Shown here: positions 7,401-15,904 of the stretch, piece by piece | Position numbering within the stretch: the stretch's first letter is position 1 | How the letters are laid out: every line of letters begins with the position of its first letter | DNA from: a virus | Lineage: Duplodnaviria > Heunggongvirae > Uroviricota > Caudoviricetes | Strand: one strand, 5' to 3' | IMG/VR virus record: IMGVR_UViG_2740892229_000013 | Length of the DNA: 38,746 nt | Program-made: the position numbers and the translations under genes | Notes under the pieces: model-generated | The model's input: only the letters and a program-made list of their open reading frames with translations | What the model was told of the DNA's origin: nothing | Database searches by the model: none

Positions 7401-8960
7401 CTAATCTCGTTTCAGAACTCCAAAATCGAATGCTCCATCAATAGGCAATACACCTTCTGCAAAGCCAGGTGTGGTGTCGATGATGTGTTTTCGCTCATAA
7501 GAGTGAGACAACAGGTATTTGTTGCTAATGTCAATGAAATCAGTGATAAAACACACGTTTGCCTGATTTTTTTTGGCTCGTAAGCCACGACCGACACGCT
7601 GTCTCATTTCAACTTCTGCTTTCCCACCACCAGCAAGAATGACCGCACCAACGCTTGGCACATCAACACCAACATCCAGAATAGTCGAGCCTATTAAAAC
7701 ATCTATTTCACCAGACGCTAAACTGTTCAGCTTTGCTTGCCTTGTCGTCTGGTTAGATTCCCCATAGATGAAATCAACTCTAAGACCTGACTCCTTCATC
7801 ATCTCCATCAGGATTTGCCCGTGGCGTTTAAGACGAACCAGAGTCATGCAGTTGAGTGAATGTTGCTTATAAAGCAATGCCTCGCGCACTATGGCCTCGT
7901 TACGTCCCAAATTATACACGATCCCCAACTGATAAGCCTTTTGGTAGGCGGTGCTCATACCAACTCTAAAATTGAGATGTTTGTTGGCAAGTTCGGCCTT
8001 GATTCTGGCCTCGTCTGGCTTGTAGGCAACTTTATGATAAAGGAAGTACGGCTTTGCCAGAATGCCTCGATCAATCAGGTACTTTTCTGTGACTTTAATT
8101 TCAATTCGCCCGGCCACCGCCATCAGGCGCATGTTGGCTTCCGTCGAATCCTTCATGAACGGCGTGGCTGTAAGCGCCAGACGATAGTCTGCGTTCACAC
8201 ATAATCTGGCGATGTCATAGAAATTTGAGCCTGAAGACTCATGCGCCTCTTCCAGAATAAGAAGAGAGACACTTGAAAGGAAGCGTTTCACCAACTCCCG
8301 ACGTTTGAGGTGGTAGCTTTTCTTATCTGGTGTTGCATCGCGTGGTGGTTCTTCGAGGAAACTTGCAAGAGTTTGAACTGTAGCGACGTTGATATGTCGT
8401 GATACCTGGAACTCACCCGAGCCAATGACTCCAACCTTTTGGTCTTTTAACCACGGTTCGCCATTTTTGGCGCGGTAGTCGATGGATCTCTGGAAGTTTT
8501 CGGCCATTTGAAACATCAGAACAGAGCGGGTTGTTAAAAATAATGTCATTCGACCGATACGTGCAGCTGCTTTGCAGGCAACATTAGATTTCCCGCCACC
8601 AGTAGCGATCTGCGCAATCATCATTCCCTCTCGAACCAGTGTTTCCACAGTCTGATCCTGATACGCATAATCAGGATTGTATGGGAATGGGTTAACCGCC
8701 GGATTTGGTTTTCCAAGCGCCGGGGCTTTGTCTTTGCGGATATGAACACATTTGATGCCCGCCTTGTTCAAGTTCGCCGCTACAGGCTTGGCAAAGCCTG
8801 CAGGGAACGAGTTTTTACTCCAGTTGAACATTGTGCTTGTGCCCTTCCAGTCGCCAGTCTCGACTTCGTAGCTCAACATCTGTTGCACCAGTTGCTTTAC
8901 CTTGTCATCTGCGCCAGAAATAAGCGCATTAACTGCGTTAGATACAATCCGAACAGTCAT
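7401..8960 (-). CDS. SF2 DNA/RNA helicase (DEAH-type)
   Basis: Walker A ATGGGKSN, DEAH-like LILEEAH, motif III LTATP, motif VI QRVGRGLR; strong RBS AAGGAAAGAGG. Confidence 0.85.
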   Translation of the reverse strand: MTVRIVSNAVNALISGADDKVKQLVQQMLSYEVETGDWKGTSTMFNWSKNSFPAGFAKPVAANLNKAGIKCVHIRKDKAPALGKPNPAVNPFPYNPDYAYQDQTVETLVREGMMIAQIATGGGKSNVACKAAARIGRMTLFLTTRSVLMFQMAENFQRSIDYRAKNGEPWLKDQKVGVIGSGEFQVSRHINVATVQTLASFLEEPPRDATPDKKSYHLKRRELVKRFLSSVSLLILEEAHESSGSNFYDIARLCVNADYRLALTATPFMKDSTEANMRLMAVAGRIEIKVTEKYLIDRGILAKPYFLYHKVAYKPDEARIKAELANKHLNFRVGMSTAYQKAYQLGIVYNLGRNEAIVREALLYKQHSLNCMTLVRLKRHGQILMEMMKESGLRVDFIYGESNQTTRQAKLNSLASGEIDVLIGSTILDVGVDVPSVGAVILAGGGKAEVEMRQRVGRGLRAKKNQANVCFITDFIDISNKYLLSHSYERKHIIDTTPGFAEGVLPIDGAFDFGVLKRD

Positions 8961-9042
8961 AAACCTCTTTCCTTAGTGCCTTTTGTATGTTATTTGGCTA
9001 TTATAATAAGTAAGTGATTACTTAGTGGATTGTAGCAATAAA
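8961..9042. promoter_or_regulatory. divergent promoter/operator region
   Basis: Between divergent helicase and ParB operons; contains TATAAT (9002-9007) and palindrome AAGTAAGTGATTACTT (9008-9023). Confidence 0.45.
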
Positions 9043-9726
9043 ATGGATGTAAAAATCACGATTTTGCAGGTTGATGTTGCCAACCTTCGCCCGAATACCT
9101 GGAACACCAATTCGGTTGGTGCGCAGAATTTTGAAAAACTGAAAGGTTCTATCGAAAAATTGGGCTTTTTTAAGCCAATTTTGGCTCGTGAACTTGAAGA
9201 TGGATTTTTTGAAATCCTCGGCGGCGAACATCGCTGGCGTGCCGCTATTGAGCAAGGAATTTCAACGGTTCCAGTGCTTTCTGTGGGCAAAATTAGCGAT
9301 GTCGTAGCTAAACAGATGTCACTGGTGGACAACGAGCGATACGGTGAAGACGACCAAATCGCATTGCAACGCTTCATTGAAGAAATTCAGTCAGAACTTG
9401 ACTATCAACTGTCTGAAATCGCCCCGTATGACGACGAAATCTCGATGGTTTTAGCAAAAGAGGCGGCAATCGACCTTGAAGCACTGGAGGCGTTGTCTCG
9501 TGGTAGTGATGAGCCTGTCGATACCGACAAACGAGAGAAAACCGAACGTGTGGGGGCGGAACATCAGACCATGCGCTTCAAAGTAACTTTCGATGCGTCA
9601 GATCGTGTTGCAGAAACCATAAAAAACATCATCAAAGAGCAGGCTATTAACACCGGTAATGAAATGGAGAACGCTGGTGAGGCTCTGGTGTGGCTGGTCG
9701 ACTACTACTACAAGGAGCGTATGTAA
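9043..9726 (+). CDS. ParB/Srx-like nuclease-domain protein 1 (possible RHH C-terminus)
   Basis: N-terminal ParB-type motif FEILGGEHRWRAAIEQG; ORF track starts GTG 9025, ATG 9043 preferred. Confidence 0.75.
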   Translation: MDVKITILQVDVANLRPNTWNTNSVGAQNFEKLKGSIEKLGFFKPILARELEDGFFEILGGEHRWRAAIEQGISTVPVLSVGKISDVVAKQMSLVDNERYGEDDQIALQRFIEEIQSELDYQLSEIAPYDDEISMVLAKEAAIDLEALEALSRGSDEPVDTDKREKTERVGAEHQTMRFKVTFDASDRVAETIKNIIKEQAINTGNEMENAGEALVWLVDYYYKERM

Positions 9727-10394
9727 TGACCAAAAAGTTTGAAATCGTATATCGCGACCCGGCAGATCTTATTCCCTATGAGATGAATGCCAAAAAGCAT
9801 GATGAACAGCAGATCCGAGATCTAGCCGCAGCCATTAAAAAGCGCGGATTTGACCAGCCAATTACGGTCGATAAGAACGACGTAATTATTACTGGCCACG
9901 GCCGCCGTGAGGCTGCAATTTTTGCTGGACTTGAGCGCGTACCGGTTATTGTTCGCGATGATCTCAGTGATGACGAGGTTCGTGCGAAGCGCCTTGAAGA
10001 TAACCGACTTGCCAGCATTGATTACGATGCAATTAAGCTACAGAAAGAGCTTGAGTCGCTTGTTCTGGACGATATCGAGGTTTTCGGCTTTGAAGAGCGT
10101 GAGTTGAATGTTCTCGTTGGCAGCATGACAGAAGAAATGGACACCGACTCGCTAGTTATCGATCTTGGCGAAGAAACTAAACGACAGAAGGATGAACACA
10201 CCGAGATCAGTCGTGAAGTTGCAGCGGAAGAAGTACGTGTTGTCGACGTATTGGGCTTTAAAACGCTTCCTGCTGGCTCTGCCATTGTTGTTGGTGATTT
10301 GCTTGCCCACATGGAAGAAATGACGGGAGAAAGCGGGGTAGACGCATTTGTGGCATATGCGGAGAAGATCTCTTCCGGGGAGATGGCTGTATGA
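9726..10394 (+). CDS. ParB/Srx-like nuclease-domain protein 2
   Basis: Motif ITGHGRREAAIFAG; ATG overlaps upstream stop (TAATG); ORF track start 9690 rejected. Confidence 0.75.
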   Translation: MTKKFEIVYRDPADLIPYEMNAKKHDEQQIRDLAAAIKKRGFDQPITVDKNDVIITGHGRREAAIFAGLERVPVIVRDDLSDDEVRAKRLEDNRLASIDYDAIKLQKELESLVLDDIEVFGFEERELNVLVGSMTEEMDTDSLVIDLGEETKRQKDEHTEISREVAAEEVRVVDVLGFKTLPAGSAIVVGDLLAHMEEMTGESGVDAFVAYAEKISSGEMAV

Positions 10395-11056
10395 GCAAAT
10401 ACATCATCAACGTATCGTTTCAGACACGCGTAAATAAAACCACGCGCACGTTGGAAATCGCTGAGTCGTTCGGGCTTGGCCTGGACGAAAAAGAGTGGAC
10501 GCTTTACGACAATCTGGAGCTGGAAGTGAAGCAGGGCGATGTGGTGTACATCACCGGCCAATCCGGTTCCGGCAAATCCGTTGTGCTGCGCGAGTTGCAA
10601 CGACAGATGAAGGATGAAGGGCTGTCTGTAGCCTCCATCGATGATTTTACCTTCGATAATGAGGTTAACGTCATCGATCAGTTGGGCAAAACGACCAGCG
10701 ATGCGCTTGGGTTGTTATCTATGGCTGGTCTGAACGATGCATATCTGTTTGTTCGCAAGCCTTCTGAAATGTCAGACGGTCAGAAATATCGTCTCAAGAT
10801 TGCCAAACTGATTGAGTCAGGCGCTAAAGTGTGGGCTGCTGACGAGTTCGGTGCTGTTCTAGACCGTGTAACCGCTCAGGTTGTGGCATCTAACCTCCAG
10901 CGTGCCGCTCGAAAGGTTGGTGCGACGGTAATGGTGGCGACGACTCACGAAGACCTGAAGAACGCGCTGCGCCCGGATATGCAGATCACCAAGCACTACA
11001 AAGAACGCGTGAAGGTGGAATATCACAATGGTAGTCATGATGAGGTTCATTTATGA
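10391..11056 (+). CDS. soluble ABC-type ATPase
   Basis: Walker A GQSGSGKS, ABC signature MSDGQ, Walker B VWAADE, H-loop ATTHED; no TM segments; ATGA overlap with upstream gene. Confidence 0.8.
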   Translation: MSKYIINVSFQTRVNKTTRTLEIAESFGLGLDEKEWTLYDNLELEVKQGDVVYITGQSGSGKSVVLRELQRQMKDEGLSVASIDDFTFDNEVNVIDQLGKTTSDALGLLSMAGLNDAYLFVRKPSEMSDGQKYRLKIAKLIESGAKVWAADEFGAVLDRVTAQVVASNLQRAARKVGATVMVATTHEDLKNALRPDMQITKHYKERVKVEYHNGSHDEVHL

Positions 11057-11943
11057 CGGACATCATCATTAAACGCTACCGCCCTGAAGAGTTTCCGCGT
11101 CATCTGGACTTTCTGGAGCGAATGACTGTCACAAAGGGAACTGTAGAGGACTGGCACGCTCTTAAGTCGCTTCACTACAAAACAGACGGCAAACCTTTCG
11201 CGCCAACTTACTATCGCTGCGAACTTGATGACCGTCTGGTGGGCGTCGTGGTTATGGCTTACCCGAAACTACTGCTGGCACCTCGCCACCGCATGTTTCC
11301 TAAGTTGAAACCAACCACTAATACCACCGTGGCTAACCAGTACTGGGGTCGGTACGTGAATAACAACTTTGCGGTGATCAGTCGCTCAGTTGTGGATACT
11401 CAGTATCGTGGCGTAGGCGTCTCTTATCGAATGATTAACCTGGTTAGCAGGATGCATGACCGGCCAATCATTGAGATCCAGTCCTCGATGAGCAAATACA
11501 ATCCCTTCGCCATGAAAGCAGGGTTTAAGTTCATCCGCCCTGAGCGACCGAAGAGCTATGAAAGTGCACTGCGTGTATTCCAGCGCCATTTCCGTTCCGA
11601 CCCGGGTGATAACGAGGCGATCGTCAAAGAATTGTTCGCAATGAGCGAGTCTCGTCGTCGCCGTGCACTGCGTGATCTGGTGGCGGACTACCACAAGAAC
11701 AGTTCCCTGGCAAAAGCTGGGCGGAATCGTGGCACGACGATTCAGGACATTGCCGACAGTCTGGTGGACGAGGCCAGCATTGTGAAGCTGCTCAAGGACA
11801 TTCACAACCTGAGCTTTACGTCTCCGTTGTATGGTGTGTACCGAAACCCTGACTTTGGCCGTCGACTGCCTGACACGCTGCCACTGCTGGCATTCGACAA
11901 ACAACCTTTGGATAAACCGTTAGAAATTGCTTTACCGGCATAA
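11053..11943 (+). CDS. GNAT-fold acyltransferase-like protein with C-terminal extension
   Basis: QYRGVGVSYRM (acyl-CoA binding-type motif) and NPFAMKAGFKF; ATGA overlap with ABC ATPase gene. Confidence 0.5.
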   Translation: MTDIIIKRYRPEEFPRHLDFLERMTVTKGTVEDWHALKSLHYKTDGKPFAPTYYRCELDDRLVGVVVMAYPKLLLAPRHRMFPKLKPTTNTTVANQYWGRYVNNNFAVISRSVVDTQYRGVGVSYRMINLVSRMHDRPIIEIQSSMSKYNPFAMKAGFKFIRPERPKSYESALRVFQRHFRSDPGDNEAIVKELFAMSESRRRRALRDLVADYHKNSSLAKAGRNRGTTIQDIADSLVDEASIVKLLKDIHNLSFTSPLYGVYRNPDFGRRLPDTLPLLAFDKQPLDKPLEIALPA

Positions 11944-11952
11944 GGATTTGCC

Positions 11953-12219
11953 ATGACGTTAACCGATAAACAAAAGGACATCATCAAAACGCTCAATCTC
12001 GGTTATGAGCGAGGTCATCTACTTGACCTGGACGAATTGCTTGAAGTTTTGCCGTACAAGACAACCAAGCAAAGTATCCAGTTCTCAATTCGCGCTCTGA
12101 TAAAAAAGGGGCTGGTGGAGAAAGGGCATACGCGCCAACGCAGTGACAATCGCTATCACCGCCGAACTCTTGGGTTAACCACTTTAGGTCGAGCCAAAGC
12201 GAAGTTACTGGTGATGTAA
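11953..12219 (+). CDS. small winged-helix-like DNA-binding protein
   Basis: 88 aa, basic C-terminus; AAGGA RBS. Confidence 0.45.
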   Translation: MTLTDKQKDIIKTLNLGYERGHLLDLDELLEVLPYKTTKQSIQFSIRALIKKGLVEKGHTRQRSDNRYHRRTLGLTTLGRAKAKLLVM

Positions 12220-12221
12220 TC

Positions 12222-12397
12222 GGTCTGGGAGCTTATTTAAAGACCTGCATCTGTATATATAAATAATAAGTAACTTATTAAATATATACGGAAGCAGGCT
12301 TCGTAAGACATGCCAGACCTAATTAAACACCCCAGAAAACAAGTTGGTTAGCAGATGCAGTAAACAAGTTGTTTTAGAGCGCATGGACGCGCTCTGT
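12222..12397. promoter_or_regulatory. structured intergenic region upstream of terS (nested inverted repeats, AT-rich palindrome)
   Basis: GGTCTGG 12222-12228 / CCAGACC 12313-12319; CTGCATCTG 12245-12253 / CAGATGCAG 12352-12360; AT palindrome 12253-12289; AAACAAGTTGTTT 12362-12374; AGAGCGC/GCGCTCT 12376-12397. Confidence 0.45.
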
Positions 12398-12414
12398 GTG
12401 TTTTAGAGGGATCT

Positions 12415-13047
12415 ATGACGGTCGAAAAAGACGAGGTAAAAACTCGCCTGACACCAGCGGAGTGGGCCGAAGCTGAAGCCAAATGGACGTCAGGCGAATA
12501 TACACTCTCAAAGCTGGAGGAAGAGTACGGCATTCGTCGTGAAACACTCTCCAGACATTTCAAAAAGCGAGGATTAGAGAAAGGCGCGGACTCTGTTGGG
12601 AAGATGGTTCGTGAGTCTCTTAAATCTGACGCAGAGCTTCGCGCTAAAGTCCGTGCGGAAAAGATAGAAGAACGTCGTACACGTTATGACGGCTGGGCGT
12701 ATGCGTTGGGGCAGATGGTGATGGTCGAAGTCACTACGGCCAAACGTGAGGGTAAGCCTTTAGGGGCGATTGAGGATTCTCTCAAGAGCTTACAGAGAGC
12801 CAGTAATACCCTTGCAAAATGCTTTGAAGTTTCGTCCAAAGCATTGGGCATGGATCATGCGGAAAATGACGAGGAAGAAATTCCGAATCTGGTATTTGGT
12901 GAGCTTACGCCTTCCCAGGTGGCGAAATTACGTCAGGAAGACGACGAGCCTGAAATCATCGATGACGAATTGCTTGAGACGTTGGAAGAAGAAGCTCTAA
13001 GCGAATTTGATGCGACAGATGATGGAAGTGAAGGGGAGGACGAATAA
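12415..13047 (+). CDS. terS: terminase small subunit
   Basis: HTH-like N-terminus, acidic C-terminus, directly upstream of and overlapping terL (TAATG). Confidence 0.6.
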   Translation: MTVEKDEVKTRLTPAEWAEAEAKWTSGEYTLSKLEEEYGIRRETLSRHFKKRGLEKGADSVGKMVRESLKSDAELRAKVRAEKIEERRTRYDGWAYALGQMVMVEVTTAKREGKPLGAIEDSLKSLQRASNTLAKCFEVSSKALGMDHAENDEEEIPNLVFGELTPSQVAKLRQEDDEPEIIDDELLETLEEEALSEFDATDDGSEGEDE

Positions 13048-14303
13048 TGGCAATCCCGTCCTCGCTCAGTCTTGTGCAACTGCATTCTGGACAGATGAAA
13101 GTCTTCCAGTCTCCGCATCGATTTAAAGTTGTTTGTGCTGGTCGACGCTGGGGAAAATCCCGGTTGTCGATCTCCACTATTATTCGTGCGGCGGCAAAGG
13201 AAAAAAAGCAAAGGGTCTGGTATGTCGCTCCTACTTACCAGATGGCTCGCCAGATTTTGTGGGACGATCTACAGGAAGTTCTGCCTCGTAAGTGGGTTAG
13301 GAAAAAGAACGACACCACGATGACAATCGTGTTGAAGAACGGTTCGGAGATCGCCCTCAAAGGTGCTGATAAGCCTGACACTCTGCGCGGCGTAGCGTTG
13401 CATTTTGTAGTGCTTGATGAATTTCAGGATATGAAGGCTGACACTTGGTACAAGGTGTTACGACCTACTCTTTCATCGACACGCGGCGGTGCACTGATCA
13501 TTGGTACGCCAAAAGGCTTCTCGGAATTTCACAAACTGTGGACTATAGGCCAGAACGTAGAGCTGCAAAGAAAGGGACAGTGGAAGAGCTGGCAGTTTGT
13601 AACTGCCGATTCTCCGTTTGTACCTACGGCGGAAATTGAAGCTGCTAAGAACGATATGGACCCCAAATCGTTCGCTCAGGAGTACCTGGCCAGCTTTGAG
13701 AACATGTCCGGGCGCGTTTACTACCCGTTCGATCGTAACGTGCATGTAAAACCGCTTCAGTTCAACCCTCGGTTACCTATATGGGTAGGGCAGGACTTCA
13801 ACATTGACCCGATGTCTTCCGTAATTTTGCAACCTCAGCCAAATGGTGAGCTATGGGCAATTGATGAATTGGTGCTCTTTTCCTCTAACACGGCAGAGGT
13901 TTGTGATGAGCTTGAGAGACGCTTCTGGCGCTGGAAATCACAGATAACGATATTTCCAGATCCGGCAGGTGCTTATCGCCAACATGCTCGCGGGGAGTCT
14001 GACGTCGACATATTCAAAGAGAAGGGATTCTTACGTGTCGATTATTCGAAAAAGCACCCGCCAATTGCGGATCGTGTTAATGCTGTTAACCGAATGCTGA
14101 TGACCGCATCTGGAGATATCCGGCTGTATATCGATCCGAAGTGCAAGCATTTGATTGATTCACTGGAAAAAGTCATCTACAAGCCTGGAACACGAGATAT
14201 GGATAAGACAGGTGGCATTGAGCATAGTGCAGACGCATTGGGCTATCCAGTACATCGTAGGTATCCAGTCAAAAACCGTGTTATTCTTGGTGGTTCTCGA
14301 TAG
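13047..14303 (+). CDS. terL: terminase large subunit
   Basis: Walker A GRRWGKS, Walker B VVLDEF, C-terminal nuclease-type acidic motifs. Confidence 0.9.
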   Translation: MAIPSSLSLVQLHSGQMKVFQSPHRFKVVCAGRRWGKSRLSISTIIRAAAKEKKQRVWYVAPTYQMARQILWDDLQEVLPRKWVRKKNDTTMTIVLKNGSEIALKGADKPDTLRGVALHFVVLDEFQDMKADTWYKVLRPTLSSTRGGALIIGTPKGFSEFHKLWTIGQNVELQRKGQWKSWQFVTADSPFVPTAEIEAAKNDMDPKSFAQEYLASFENMSGRVYYPFDRNVHVKPLQFNPRLPIWVGQDFNIDPMSSVILQPQPNGELWAIDELVLFSSNTAEVCDELERRFWRWKSQITIFPDPAGAYRQHARGESDVDIFKEKGFLRVDYSKKHPPIADRVNAVNRMLMTASGDIRLYIDPKCKHLIDSLEKVIYKPGTRDMDKTGGIEHSADALGYPVHRRYPVKNRVILGGSR

Positions 14304-14329: not shown

Positions 14330-15904
14330 ATGGAATTGAACGACAAACAAATTAAGGATCTGGTGGCGCGACGCCACCCGGAATACGAAAAGAAAAAAGA
14401 ACATTGGGACTTCCTCGCCAGCACTTACGCTGGCGGGCGTGGTTGGTTTACAGACAATATCTTTCGTTACTTTAAAGAGGGAGATCAGGAGTTTAAGGAG
14501 CGAGTTGAACGTGCTTATCGCTTCAACCACACTCGTGAGGTGGTAAACCTCATCAACAAATATCTCTTTAAAGAAGACATTCATAGAAATATCGAAGAGG
14601 CACCAGAGCAGATCCGCAATTTCTGGAAACGTGCGACTCGCCAGAATGCCTCTATTGACTCATTTATGGCCGCTATTGATTTGCAGTCGTCTATTTACGG
14701 TCGCATATGGGTTGTTGTCGATAGCACGATGAGTGGTGATGTTGAGTCAGTAGCTGACGAGAAAAAGAAAGATGCTCGCGCCTACGCCTACTGGATTTCA
14801 CCTCAGCAAATGCTGGATGTGGCATGGGACGACGACGGGAATATGTTGTGGGCGTTAATTGTGGAAGTCGCTCGTGATGACGCAGATCCTTTTACTTCTA
14901 CAGGTCAGGAATACCAACGTTATCGTCTGTGGACACAAAACGAGTGGTATCTGTTCCGTGAGGAAGTGAAGAAGGGCGCTGGTGGAGCAGGTCGCCGTCA
15001 GGCAAAAGTTATTTTAGAGGATAGCGGTGAGCATAATCTCGGCGTAGTTCCTGTGTTTCCTGTTGATTGTATTGGAGAAAGTGAATCACCGTATTTCAGC
15101 CCATCGTTGATCGATGATATCGCTTATCTTGATCGTGCGGTTGCAAACTATCTGTCAAACCTTGATGCCATTATTCAGGATCAGACATTTAGCCAGTTGG
15201 CTATACCGGTACAGTCGCTTTTACCTGGTGATGAAAACCACACTAAAGTGCTTGAAATGGGCACAAAGCGAGTCTTCACCTACGATTCTGAAGGTGGAAA
15301 CCAGCCGTTTTATCTGTCACCAGACCCGAAACAAGCTCAGATGATCATCACTACGATTAAGACGGTGATTAACGAAATCTACCATTCAGTTGGTGTAGCT
15401 GGTGAGCGAACGAAGCAGGACAACGCACAGGGAATCGATAACTCATCTGGGGCCGCAAAAATGTATGACTTCCAGCGTGTAAATAGCTTGCTTGTCACAA
15501 AAGCAGAGCGTCTGGAAAGGGCTGAACGCCAAATCATGCTACTGGTTGCGAAATGGATGGGGGTAGATCTGGACGAAGACCACTCTTTAATTGCGTATCC
15601 AGAAAGTTTCGATATTCGTGGCCTTACAGATGAATTTTCTGTTGCCGAGAAACTGTCATTACTTCAGGCACCGGACTCTGTACGTCGTCACCAGATGGAA
15701 ATGCTTATTGAGAAGATTTTCCCGAACATTACTGAGGCGATGAAAAAGGAATTTGATAAAGATCTCTTGAATTTTCCGCCAAAAAATGATCTAAATACCC
15801 TTGAAAATAAGTCAGTACTTACTTATGATCGTGGTGTGGCCCAAGAAAGCGGGCAAGATCAACCCCGAGGGAATGGGGACTCATCTACTCAAGAGAACGA
15901 GTGA
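14330..15904 (+). CDS. portal protein
   Basis: 524 aa, immediately after terL; position and size. Confidence 0.7.
   Translation: MELNDKQIKDLVARRHPEYEKKKEHWDFLASTYAGGRGWFTDNIFRYFKEGDQEFKERVERAYRFNHTREVVNLINKYLFKEDIHRNIEEAPEQIRNFWKRATRQNASIDSFMAAIDLQSSIYGRIWVVVDSTMSGDVESVADEKKKDARAYAYWISPQQMLDVAWDDDGNMLWALIVEVARDDADPFTSTGQEYQRYRLWTQNEWYLFREEVKKGAGGAGRRQAKVILEDSGEHNLGVVPVFPVDCIGESESPYFSPSLIDDIAYLDRAVANYLSNLDAIIQDQTFSQLAIPVQSLLPGDENHTKVLEMGTKRVFTYDSEGGNQPFYLSPDPKQAQMIITTIKTVINEIYHSVGVAGERTKQDNAQGIDNSSGAAKMYDFQRVNSLLVTKAERLERAERQIMLLVAKWMGVDLDEDHSLIAYPESFDIRGLTDEFSVAEKLSLLQAPDSVRRHQMEMLIEKIFPNITEAMKKEFDKDLLNFPPKNDLNTLENKSVLTYDRGVAQESGQDQPRGNGDSSTQENE

Follow-up and report, generated by a model that had tools for sequence, protein, structure and literature searches.

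The four genes at positions 9043 to 11943 of the window (the whole stretch of 38,746 nucleotides analysed here) code for a pair of ParB-fold paralogues, for a soluble ABC ATPase that is complete, and for a protein of GNAT fold, and the catalytic motifs of these ParB, ABC and GNAT folds are intact. In this work, we examine the possible function of the cassette and compare it with known systems. We will argue that it may encode a ParB-assisted, ATP-dependent enzyme that uses acyl-CoA and acts on viral DNA around packaging, a reading to which we assign a probability of about 0.45. DNA-targeted modification and a link to packaging are the readings that the evidence favours.

The genome belongs to the class of SSU5-like phage-plasmids and has 99.4% identity to Escherichia phage Cyrano. 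The cassette lies on the plus strand and consists of ParB1 (9043..9726, 227 aa, with an alternative GTG start at 9025), its full-length paralogue ParB2 (9726..10394, 222 aa), the stand-alone soluble ABC ATPase (10391..11056, 221 aa), which corresponds to the ATPase part of a split ABC-GNAT, and the GNAT-fold acyltransferase half (11053..11943, 296 aa). To the left lies a divergent gene for an SF2 (UvsW/DEAD-type) helicase on the minus strand (7401..8960; Pfam ResIII, DEAD and Helicase_C), which is annotated in Cyrano as UvsW helicase. To the right, all on the plus strand, follow the genes of a conserved, basic, wHTH-like protein of 88 aa (11953..12219; phrog_900, 1.9e-45), of a candidate small terminase or DNA-binding protein of 210 aa with an acidic tail (12415..13047; phrog_867, 7e-100), and of the large terminase subunit TerL (13047..14303), whose homologues at related loci carry Terminase_6N. 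The portal gene (14330-15904) comes next.

This order, from the helicase on the opposite strand through the four cassette genes, the phrog_867 protein and TerL to the portal, is kept in 27 of 27 divergent syntenic loci from Gamma- and Alphaproteobacteria, with identities down to 37-45%; in most of them the 88-aa gene is found directly 3' of the GNAT gene. The helicase is the left neighbour in 26, the remaining locus being too short to show it, and the cassette order is identical in the cultured phages SSU5, Cyrano, nickie and RHEph10, among others. An earlier note on this DNA had described the four genes with their folds, order and start/stop overlaps, all of which we confirm, and the neighbourhood comparison that it proposed finds the four genes together in that order at every one of the 27 loci. 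It had also taken the overlaps to imply one stoichiometric module. The four genes do form one functional module, as seen from the conserved order and from the fusions discussed below, but the stoichiometry cannot be read from the overlaps, which are clade-specific. They constitute weak evidence for a module, because they are frequent in the window and are lost in relatives where further genes have been inserted.

Both ParB proteins match Pfam ParB_N (PF02195) above the gathering score, ParB1 at 3.2e-13 over residues 9-97 and ParB2 at 1.3e-8, and they match phrog_723 (9e-78) and phrog_930 (2e-112), respectively. Their families align with each other over 206 columns (hhalign probability 99.2%, E 2e-19), and both proteins are built of three parts: the NTP-binding domain at the N-terminus is joined by a very acidic linker to a C-terminal domain that is small and conserved. 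The net charge is −18 for ParB1, of which −14 resides in the linker (residues 101-170), and −22 for ParB2. The P-motif, or Box II, GxxRxxA with its conserved arginine is present in both. In ParB1, G60, G61, H63 and R64 (P-motif GGEHR, within GGEHRWRAA) and D96 and N97 are invariant in 17 orthologues, while the invariant residues of ParB2 are G57, H58, G59, R60 and A63 (GHGRREAA), R89 and N93. ParB relatives bind CTP, ATP or GTP, and the P-motif arginine is needed for NTP binding (bioRxiv 10.1101/2025.10.10.680097). The nearest relatives of the ParB domain of ParB2 are the ParB domains of ParB-DNA-methyltransferase fusions; the protein also matches phrog_498 'DNA methyltransferase' (1.7e-31) and, with its N-terminal part only, PADLOC MTase_II (2.9e-17).

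The database names suggest a different role, in which the ParBs would be partition proteins of the phage-plasmid and the downstream genes subunits of an ABC transporter. RefSeq and PHROG indeed use 'ParB-like partition protein', 'ABC transporter' and 'ABC transporter ATP-binding subunit', and SSU5 is maintained as a plasmid (PMC7969092). We give next to no credence to these names. Neither ParB has a Pfam match to HTH_ParB (PF17762), the NCBIfam match of the ParB proteins to TIGR00180 stays below threshold (43 bits against a cut-off of 58), no ParA-interaction motif is seen at either N-terminus, and no parA lies beside the pair, which is flanked by the helicase and the ABC ATPase; the ParA-like gene of SSU5 is ca 70 kb away. 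The cassette also occurs in phages that are not described as plasmids (nickie, RHEph10), and in fused form in archaeal proviruses. As to transport, neither the cassette nor the 27 syntenic loci contain a membrane-domain gene, gene 4 has no P-loop despite the name 'ATP-binding subunit' and is a GNAT, and the fusion partner of the ABC domain is likewise a GNAT. The absence of HTH, parA, membrane domain and P-loop effectively refutes both the partition and the transporter readings.

The ATPase matches Pfam ABC_tran (PF00005) at 5.8e-13 and has the full set of ABC elements, namely the Q-loop region, Walker A, an LSGGQ-type signature, the D-E of Walker B, the D-loop and the H-loop. Among 37 split and fused sequences, Walker A residues G56/S58/G59/G61/K62, the signature S128-D-G-Q131, D151 and E152, D-loop residues L157, D158 and R159, and H186 are 95-100% conserved. 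Transporter NBDs in the PDB match it at ca 1e-13, to be compared with 1e-13 to 1e-63 for the fused relatives described below, and a homology search with it returned close orthologues only and added no information about architectures. Its earlier description as a soluble ABC-type rather than ParA-type ATPase is borne out by these motifs, and the suggested profile-HMM searches recover ABC_tran here and ParB_N in both ParBs.

The product of gene 4 has a GNAT alpha/beta fold in its core (residues ca 20-165; nt 11110-11547, plus strand), followed by a family-specific helical domain (residues 166-296; nt 11548-11940, plus strand) in which no nucleic-acid-binding fold is recognised. This agrees with the GNAT-like protein with an extra C-terminal domain that the earlier note had seen. 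Motif A (Q/R-x-x-G-x-G/A) reads R119-G-V-G122-V-S, where R119 and G122 do not vary among 60 sequences; it reads R-G-I-G-L-G in fused forms and Q-G-I-G-x-G in a mini-GNAT lineage. The invariance of motif A and of many core residues over large distances argues for catalysis, and gene 4 can be considered a GNAT-fold acyltransferase half that is predicted to bind acyl-CoA and to transfer the acyl group. GNATs mostly acetylate proteins or small molecules, and in structure the core is no closer to Mom, TmcA and NAT10 than to protein or small-molecule N-acetyltransferases. TmcA and NAT10 are among its top Foldseek hits (ca 1.4e-4 to 2e-4) with an identity of 9-12%, and Mom gives a generic fold match with 12% identity. 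No equivalent of the HTH-like insertion of Mom is seen within the modelled core, and the GNAT-like family, run as a profile against PDB sequences, gave nothing significant and did not retrieve Mom. NCBIfam yields generic ABC and ParB matches, and none for the GNAT protein.

Genes 3 and 4 have their counterpart in a large family of fused proteins. All of the 63 representative relatives with a length of 400 aa or more have the ATPase fused N-terminally to the GNAT region; the window's ATPase matches the N-terminal domain of all 63 (1e-13 to 1e-63), their GNAT part matches gene 4 (1e-10 to 1e-24), and the motifs of both domains are conserved between split and fused forms. Judged by these alignments, genes 3 and 4 are orthologous split halves of one ABC-GNAT enzyme. 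The fused form gave more than 2,200 matches in one search, mostly from archaeal proviruses, and ABC-GNAT was found on at least 565 viral contigs, from archaeal and bacterial tailed viruses. The pair has an existing annotation, 'ABC-type ATPase fused to a predicted acetyltransferase domain' (MK0520/COG2401-type), whose two domains and their order are those of genes 3 and 4; the window differs in that the halves are separate genes and that two ParB genes are added. The earlier view that the combination is undescribed holds insofar as we found no published description, but its ABC and GNAT pair had been catalogued. A literature search on COG2401, the ABC-type ATPase fusion, and ParB with ABC, GNAT and terminase found no description or characterisation (two papers of the Aravind lab that share these terms deal with Dnd and BREX and have no bearing on the module), and since the MK0520/COG2401-type family is uncharacterised, membership in it explains nothing about the mechanism.

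ParB is a genuine partner of ABC-GNAT. Four proteins (P0196, P0215, P0225 and P0227) are fusions of ParB, Zn-ribbon, ABC and GNAT, whose N-termini align in hhalign with both ParB families, at 98% probability (E 2.7e-13) for ParB2 and 97.7% (E 1.9e-12) for ParB1, and a third lineage has ParB, ABC and mini-GNAT as separate genes in that order. A ParB is found near fused ABC-GNAT in 1 of 80 loci, and as most fused genes have none nearby, ParB is to be seen as an optional accessory outside the core. In other fusions the module is combined with family-B DNA polymerase (PolB), and one copy is located within an SPbeta-like replication module. Three further proteins (P0191, P0204 and P0229) carry an N-terminal P-loop and nuclease-like region with weak Pfam matches to KAP and Pox_A32; a terminase-like identity of this region was rejected (hhalign probability 0.07%), and no terminase-like domain fused to the module was found.

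A link of the ABC-GNAT module to the terminase recurs as well. Of 80 viral loci, 42, and at least 46 when ORF starts are corrected, have the fused gene directly 3' of TerL, at a distance that is usually −4 to +9 nt. The triple fusion with ParB and the form with three separate genes are located immediately upstream of a small ORF and TerL. In the window, a 195-bp AT-rich gap divides the cassette from the terminase genes. It contains a terminator-like G+C-rich hairpin followed by a T-run (12375..12396, plus strand), which was detected in a consensus scan and is suggestive by position alone, the number of promoter and terminator sites not being above the shuffle expectation. The linear records of SSU5 and Cyrano end inside the same gap, ca 62 bp past the 88-aa gene. 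The gene of the 210-aa protein, whose phrog_867 label is 'DNA binding domain', is directly upstream of TerL in all loci, and here its stop overlaps the TerL start (TAATG); its position suggests that it is TerS. The 88-aa protein has weak HTH-type matches only (LexA_DNA_bind 0.07, Sta1/Lrs14 ca 3e-3), and its gene may represent a fifth module component or a regulator. Its net charge of +9 and that of +15 of the GNAT protein, together with the negative ParBs, fit a nucleic-acid-binding enzyme with acidic adaptors. It should be pointed out that the adjacency to the terminase might reflect no more than late expression, or a packaging role without DNA chemistry.

We now compare the cassette with known systems. 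The ParB subtype that is fused to ABC-GNAT also has DNA methyltransferases as partners, either a C5 enzyme encoded next to it on the downstream side (4 of 4 cases tested, E 1e-56 to 1e-68) or an N6/N4 enzyme in one chain with it (4 of 4 tested), and in sibling viruses both kinds of partner occupy the same slot upstream of TerL. Such methyltransferase systems, which occur fused or paired in phages and plasmids (phrog_498; ParB_N with N6_N4_Mtase or C5 DNA_methylase), have ParB domains homologous to those of the cassette, and they share with the ParB-ABC-GNAT forms the exact position 5' of a small ORF and TerL. They use SAM, whereas the partner in the cassette is an ATP-dependent GNAT, and both cofactor and expected product differ. 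ParB-methyltransferase and ParB-acetyltransferase fusions are on record (bioRxiv 10.1101/2025.10.10.680097), and phage ParB-like proteins without a DNA-binding domain are indispensable for the activation of DNA thymine dioxygenases (PMC13229309; bioRxiv 10.1101/2025.08.14.668559). The system of 5mYOX and its cognate ParB (O'Toole et al., PNAS 2026, PMC13229309) resembles the cassette in its HTH-less phage protein of ParB-CTPase fold with NTP-binding and C-terminal domains. The adjacent ParB is required for activation of the enzyme, which acts on DNA after replication, and the loci are frequently near terminase genes, as is the cassette. It has an Fe/2OG dioxygenase instead of an ABC ATPase and a predicted GNAT acyltransferase, and one ParB instead of two paralogues. 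Mutations of the NTP-binding residues of ParB did not abolish activation in the T-dioxygenase system (PMC13229309), which makes an 'NTP-gated clamp' uncertain even for this closest analogue.

Mom, an enzyme with GNAT fold, modifies adenine in DNA; it acts alone with glycyl-tRNA as donor, through an HTH-like insertion that its activity requires, and its substrate could not, according to the authors of the study, be predicted from structure (PMC13219725). The cassette GNAT, in contrast, has an ATPase and ParBs as partners and an intact canonical acyl-CoA motif A. Membership in the Mom family was rejected on the low identity given above, no Mom-specific features having been found. TmcA and NAT10, the tRNA/rRNA cytidine N4-acetyltransferases, share the design of ATPase plus GNAT with nucleobase acetylation from acetyl-CoA, but their ATPase is a RecD-like helicase domain and that of the cassette an ABC domain, and the C-terminal domain of the cassette GNAT shows no similarity to their tails. 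With neither a RecD-like helicase ATPase nor a tRNA-binding tail, the cassette does not belong to that family either, and the likeness concerns a possible working mode only.

In the mechanism that we infer, ParB1 and ParB2 probably heterodimerise into an NTP-gated adaptor or activator. The ABC ATPase would dimerise upon ATP binding and engage the putative DNA substrate jointly with the strongly basic GNAT protein, which would transfer an acyl group, most simply acetyl from acetyl-CoA as the predicted donor, onto a nucleobase. This activity would be timed to late gene expression and packaging, such that the packaged progeny DNA would be marked and, presumably, protected against host nucleases or defence systems. 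Our literature search, of limited coverage, found no report of modified or restriction-resistant virion DNA in SSU5-, nickie- or RHEph10-type phages. More tentatively, and with odds well short of even, ABC-GNAT with or without ParB may constitute an unrecognised and very widespread class of virus-encoded DNA acyltransferases, in which ATP-driven ABC dimerisation presents the base to the GNAT and the acyl mark is placed at replication or packaging. The mark could in that case be N4-acetyl-deoxycytidine or an N6/N2-acyl purine.

Other substrates have to be weighed against DNA. A ParB-recruited ABC-GNAT might acetylate DNA-bound proteins, tuning or stripping them for replication or packaging, and the targets could be host HU, H-NS or archaeal Alba, or viral TerS, portal or polymerase. 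We regard this as unlikely: the enzymes that replace ABC-GNAT beside the same ParB subtype are methyltransferases that modify DNA itself, the known ParB-partnered enzymes (5mYOX, methyltransferases, DpdA) work on DNA bases, and no candidate target protein co-varies with the module. Still less probable is host takeover or anti-defence, with the GNAT acetylating aminoacyl-tRNA, a defence signalling nucleotide or polyamines under regulation by the ATPase. The toxins TacT and AtaT do acetylate aminoacyl-tRNA, but a non-DNA substrate leaves the ParB and PolB fusions and the methyltransferase substitution unexplained. There is no defence or anti-defence match in PADLOC, which returned partial ParB-domain matches to MTase_II and generic P-loop matches only, with none for the GNAT protein, and the structural hits reflect generic GNAT similarity.

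The cassette might also serve packaging without covalent DNA chemistry, the ParBs being binders or nickases of the pac/cos region, the ABC protein a DNA clamp and the GNAT structural or regulatory. HNH proteins assist the terminase in HK97-like phages. The tight and often overlapping adjacency to TerL/TerS-like genes, which recurs in several unrelated virus lineages, speaks for such a role, as does the location of the cassette beside the gap that contains the ends of the SSU5 and Cyrano records, and some ParB/Srx proteins are reported to have nuclease or nicking activity (Maindola et al. 2014). We nevertheless find it improbable, since the invariant motif A and core residues of the GNAT argue for catalysis, the PolB fusions and the copies in replication modules do not fit a role in packaging only, most ABC-GNAT genes lack a ParB, and no terminase-like domain was found fused to the module.

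The proposal of a ParB-assisted DNA acyltransferase is directly testable by existing co-expression and LC-MS assays. If true, it would extend the known phage DNA modifications by an acyl-transfer branch, and would bring a new enzyme design of ABC ATPase plus GNAT and a further use of the ParB fold, as an adaptor of DNA-modifying enzymes. The wider DNA-acyltransferase class would, if real, mean a new modification chemistry common to the tailed viruses of Archaea and Bacteria. Given the size of the family, a defined function would correct thousands of misleading names ('ABC transporter', 'ParB-like partition protein'). The module is also carried by clinically common phage-plasmids of Enterobacteriaceae, and its function could explain how these elements evade restriction and could yield a new DNA-labelling enzyme. 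Even with a protein target, the consistent terminase neighbour across two domains of life would represent unexplored packaging biology.

By sequence, the window belongs to the SSU5-like phage-plasmids. In the sequence search, positions 9000-12000 share 99.4% identity with Escherichia phage Cyrano and 85% with Salmonella phage SSU5, and Klebsiella phage-plasmids are further relatives. The cassette genes all lie on the plus strand and encode ParB1 (9043-9726), ParB2 (9726-10394), an ABC ATPase (10391-11056) and a 296-aa GNAT-fold protein (11053-11943). They are joined by TAATG between the two ParB genes and by ATGA on either side of the ATPase gene. The four reading frames and the three junctions match the description in the earlier note exactly, and all the motifs quoted there are found in the proteins. 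The Pfam profiles assign ParB_N to both ParBs and ABC_tran to the ATPase, with the GNAT match of the fourth protein being sub-threshold (E 0.037).

Upstream of the cassette, on the minus strand, there is a UvsW/DEAD-type helicase gene (7401-8960). Downstream follow a conserved 88-aa basic protein (phrog_900; 11953-12219, plus strand), a 195-bp AT-rich intergenic gap (12220-12414) that includes TATATATAAATAATAAGTAACTTATTAAATATATAC, a 210-aa 'DNA binding domain' protein (phrog_867) that is the candidate small terminase, the large terminase TerL (13047-14303, plus strand), whose start overlaps the phrog_867 stop, and then the portal gene. The cassette thus leads the block of genes for packaging and morphogenesis. 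The gap itself, just 5' of the phrog_867 gene, contains a terminator-like G+C-rich hairpin (12375-12396), and the linear records of SSU5 and Cyrano both stop ca 62 bp inside it; a pac/cos site or a late promoter may be located there.

It was suggested in the earlier note that the start-stop overlaps imply a single stoichiometric module. By themselves, the overlaps are a weak sign, since about 11 of the 26 same-strand junctions in the window overlap and since the overlaps are not conserved in the relatives. In SSU5, a 255-bp gene separates the ATPase gene from the GNAT gene, in phage nickie small genes interrupt both the ParB1-ParB2 and the ABC-GNAT junction, and in alphaproteobacterial relatives the gaps within the cassette are 0.2-0.9 kb, with at most three inserted genes. 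That the four genes form one module is nevertheless upheld by the ABC-GNAT and ParB fusions discussed below and by the gene neighborhood. The order helicase (minus strand)/ParB1-ParB2-ABC...GNAT-(88-aa gene)-phrog_867-TerL-portal is retained in 27 of 27 syntenic loci from Enterobacterales, Halomonas, Sphingomonadales, Rhizobiales, Rhodospirillales and others, whose GNAT proteins go down to 37-45% identity. Cultured members of the same lineage are found among Rhizobium, Pseudomonas (nickie), Stenotrophomonas and Xanthomonas phages. We consider it highly probable that the cassette is one functional module, with a split ABC-GNAT enzyme as its core and the ParBs as accessories.

The cassette is also a hotspot for small insertions, which look like moron-type genes. 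Examples are found in the loci L002 (8020-8274; the 255-bp ORF SSU5_128), L004 (6961-7999) and L205 (4168-4329 and 5646-5981), and in an Ectothiorhodospira prophage the inserted genes include ones with Phage_gp49_66 and RyR domains. The TerL ORFs of the SSU5-like relatives L094 (11944-14193), L099 (12024-14540) and L107 (11709-14487) are ca 750-840 aa long or in two pieces, compared to 418 aa in the window, which points to an intein or some other insertion in TerL. In the distant relatives L003 (2695-3183) and L004 (1108-1569), a dCMP/cytidine deaminase-family gene is located upstream of the helicase, at a distance of a few kb, and a radical-SAM gene lies at the edge of L004; these genes hint at nearby nucleotide or DNA-modification functions. 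At other places in the SSU5 record (L206; 30497-31521, 61957-62451, 77659-78276) there is a gene for a ParA-like ATPase, with a 96-aa ORF behind it that may encode a small centromere-binding protein, and there are further genes for a separate stand-alone acetyltransferase, SSU5_071, and for the DNA methyltransferase SSU5_088.

An exhaustive profile search returned 970 relatives of the GNAT-like family. In all 63 representatives with a length of 400 aa or more, an ABC domain lies directly N-terminal of the GNAT region. These fused ABC domains match the window ATPase with E-values between 1e-13 and 1e-63, the majority below 1e-30, whereas transporter NBDs in the PDB reach only ca 1e-13. On these grounds, genes 3 and 4 of the cassette are one ABC-GNAT enzyme in split form. 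The ATPase motifs are nearly invariant, including the family-specific LSDGQ(K/R)YR signature and the LDR D-loop, and so is GNAT motif A (R/Q-x-x-G-x-G/S), which points to two active catalytic centres. One homolog, P0165 (847 aa), has an intein (Hint + LAGLIDADG) inside the ABC ATPase domain, beside Walker B.

The ParBs are optional, dedicated partners of this enzyme. Four of the representatives, P0196, P0215, P0225 and P0227, are triple fusions with an extra N-terminal region of ca 210 aa and a Zn ribbon ahead of ABC-GNAT, and in profile-profile comparisons this region matches ParB2 with 98% probability (E 2.7e-13) and ParB1 with 97.7% (E 1.9e-12). ParB1 and ParB2 are also paralogous to each other over their full length (99.2%, E 2e-19, 206 columns); both have a very acidic linker, and their overall net charges are -18 and -22. 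A third architecture, on other viral contigs, consists of a 179-aa ParB of the triple-fusion subtype, an overlapping 228-aa ABC gene, a mini-GNAT, an ORF of ca 165 aa and TerL. The mini-GNAT (100-180 aa) matches the GNAT-like family with 92.9% probability (E 3.6e-7, hhalign).

As a substitution test, viral contigs were scanned with this ParB subtype, and alternative partners were found in the same slot, 5' of the ca 165-aa ORF and TerL. The gene next after ParB encodes a C-5 cytosine DNA methyltransferase in four of four cases tested (E 1e-56 to 1e-68), and an N6/N4 DNA methyltransferase fused to the same ParB subtype was likewise confirmed in four of four. For the window ParB2 as well, the nearest ParB domains are those fused to methyltransferases (phrog_498, 1.7e-31; PADLOC MTase_II, 2.9e-17). 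Since methyltransferases occupy the same ParB-partnered slot, ABC-GNAT and known DNA-modifying enzymes can stand in for each other as partners of this ParB subtype. This substitution is the most specific functional evidence obtained in this analysis. At L240 (4173-5956), the same ParB subtype is followed, upstream of TerL, by a 434-aa protein with weak radical-SAM matches, which may be a further ParB-partnered nucleic-acid-modifying enzyme.

Fused ABC-GNAT proteins are very abundant, with more than 2,200 matches at E <1e-10, mostly in MAGs of Bathyarchaeia, Nitrososphaerota and Thermoproteota, and are present on at least 565 IMG/VR contigs. On long archaeal contigs they lie inside head-tail proviruses: in L123 and L124 the gene overlaps the end of TerL, as it does in one bacterial prophage, and in L121 it is found at the edge of the provirus, behind the last tail genes. 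Of 80 viral loci, 42 have TerL immediately 5' of ABC-GNAT, the spacing usually being -4 to +9 nt, and correction of ORF-start overcalls adds 4 more; in the remainder, ABC-GNAT mostly comes after a small ORF or the gene of a large tail-like protein. The triple fusion is directly 5' of a 158-aa ORF, TerL and a portal gene, the portal family being different from that of the SSU5-like lineage. Other copies are fused to a family-B DNA polymerase in a replication cluster or belong to an SPbeta-like replication module. All identifiable fusion partners and all conserved neighbors of ABC-GNAT handle DNA.

The polymerase fusion (1,260 aa, with exonuclease and polymerase domains; L007 8001-11783, also L008, L009, L197, L198 and L200; proteins P0202 and P0180) is found on at least 24 contigs, as part of a phage replication cluster that also encodes PrimPol, RecA and a 5'-3' exonuclease. 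In the homologs P0191, P0204 and P0229 (L120 8001-10637), ABC-GNAT has an N-terminal extension of 410-440 aa with a P-loop NTPase (weak KAP and Pox_A32 matches) and a PD-(D/E)xK-like motif, e.g. EPDIVVW...IIAIKS; hhalign gave no relation of this extension to TerL. P0154 (665 aa; L116 166-2163), probably archaeal, has a C-terminal TFIIB-repeat (cyclin-like) domain and lies on a short contig beside isochorismatase and YdjM genes. In about one-fifth of the IMG/VR loci L125-L204 (e.g. L130-L134, L137, L140, L146, L149-L151, L187, L192 and L193), the contig or provirus call stops within or just past the ABC-GNAT gene, which indicates that the viral region, or the genome itself, frequently has its end at this gene.

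The reading we favor, with a probability of roughly 45%, is that the cassette covalently modifies DNA. The ParB pair would act as an NTP-dependent adaptor or activator, DNA would be engaged by ATP-driven ABC dimerization together with the basic GNAT protein (net charge +15), and an acyl group would be moved from acyl-CoA onto a base, marking the DNA during packaging. There is a substantial, though less than even, chance that the chemistry is categorically new. Two analogies, TmcA/NAT10, where an ATPase is coupled to a GNAT domain for nucleobase acetylation, and Mom, a GNAT-fold DNA modifier, make such a design plausible. Neither is of the same family as the cassette, since the identities are 9-12%, the ATPase is of another type and the tail domain is unmatched.

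The main weakness of the DNA-modification model is that structure does not reveal the substrates of GNAT proteins, a point made in a study of Mom (PMC13219725), and we found no report in the literature of modified DNA in this phage lineage. The enzyme could instead acetylate DNA-bound proteins, thereby clearing or tuning the DNA for packaging and replication, which we regard as unlikely. A packaging accessory or nickase, acting without DNA chemistry, is less likely still, and it is quite improbable that the substrate is something other than DNA, for example tRNA, polyamines or signalling nucleotides. That the annotated partition and transporter functions are correct is hardly credible: Pfam finds no HTH_ParB domain in ParB1 or ParB2, there is no neighboring parA, the ParA-like gene of SSU5 being ca 70 kb away, and the two ParBs also occur in phages that have no plasmid description.

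The partnering of DNA-modifying enzymes by ParBs is a theme that is now emerging and has in part been demonstrated. One class of phage DNA thymine dioxygenases was recently shown to require ParB-like activators (PMC13229309; bioRxiv 10.1101/2025.08.14.668559), which have the same architecture as the window ParBs, i.e. an NTP-binding domain, a variable linker and a C-terminal domain. A survey of the ParB-CTPase fold describes phage ParB-methyltransferase fusions and a bacterial GTP-binding ParB-acetyltransferase fusion; the ABC-GNAT combination is absent from it (bioRxiv 10.1101/2025.10.10.680097).

The cassette genes are already in public records, under misleading names, and the ABC-GNAT pair is already catalogued as a predicted acetyltransferase fusion, in some sources with the label 'ABC-type ATPase fused to a predicted acetyltransferase domain'. 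What is new is the recognition of the cassette as a ParB plus split ABC-GNAT system, the breadth of ABC-GNAT over archaeal and bacterial tailed viruses, its recurrent linkage to terminase and its exchange with DNA methyltransferases. On the favored reading, the cassette would belong among the ParB-assisted DNA-modifying modules.
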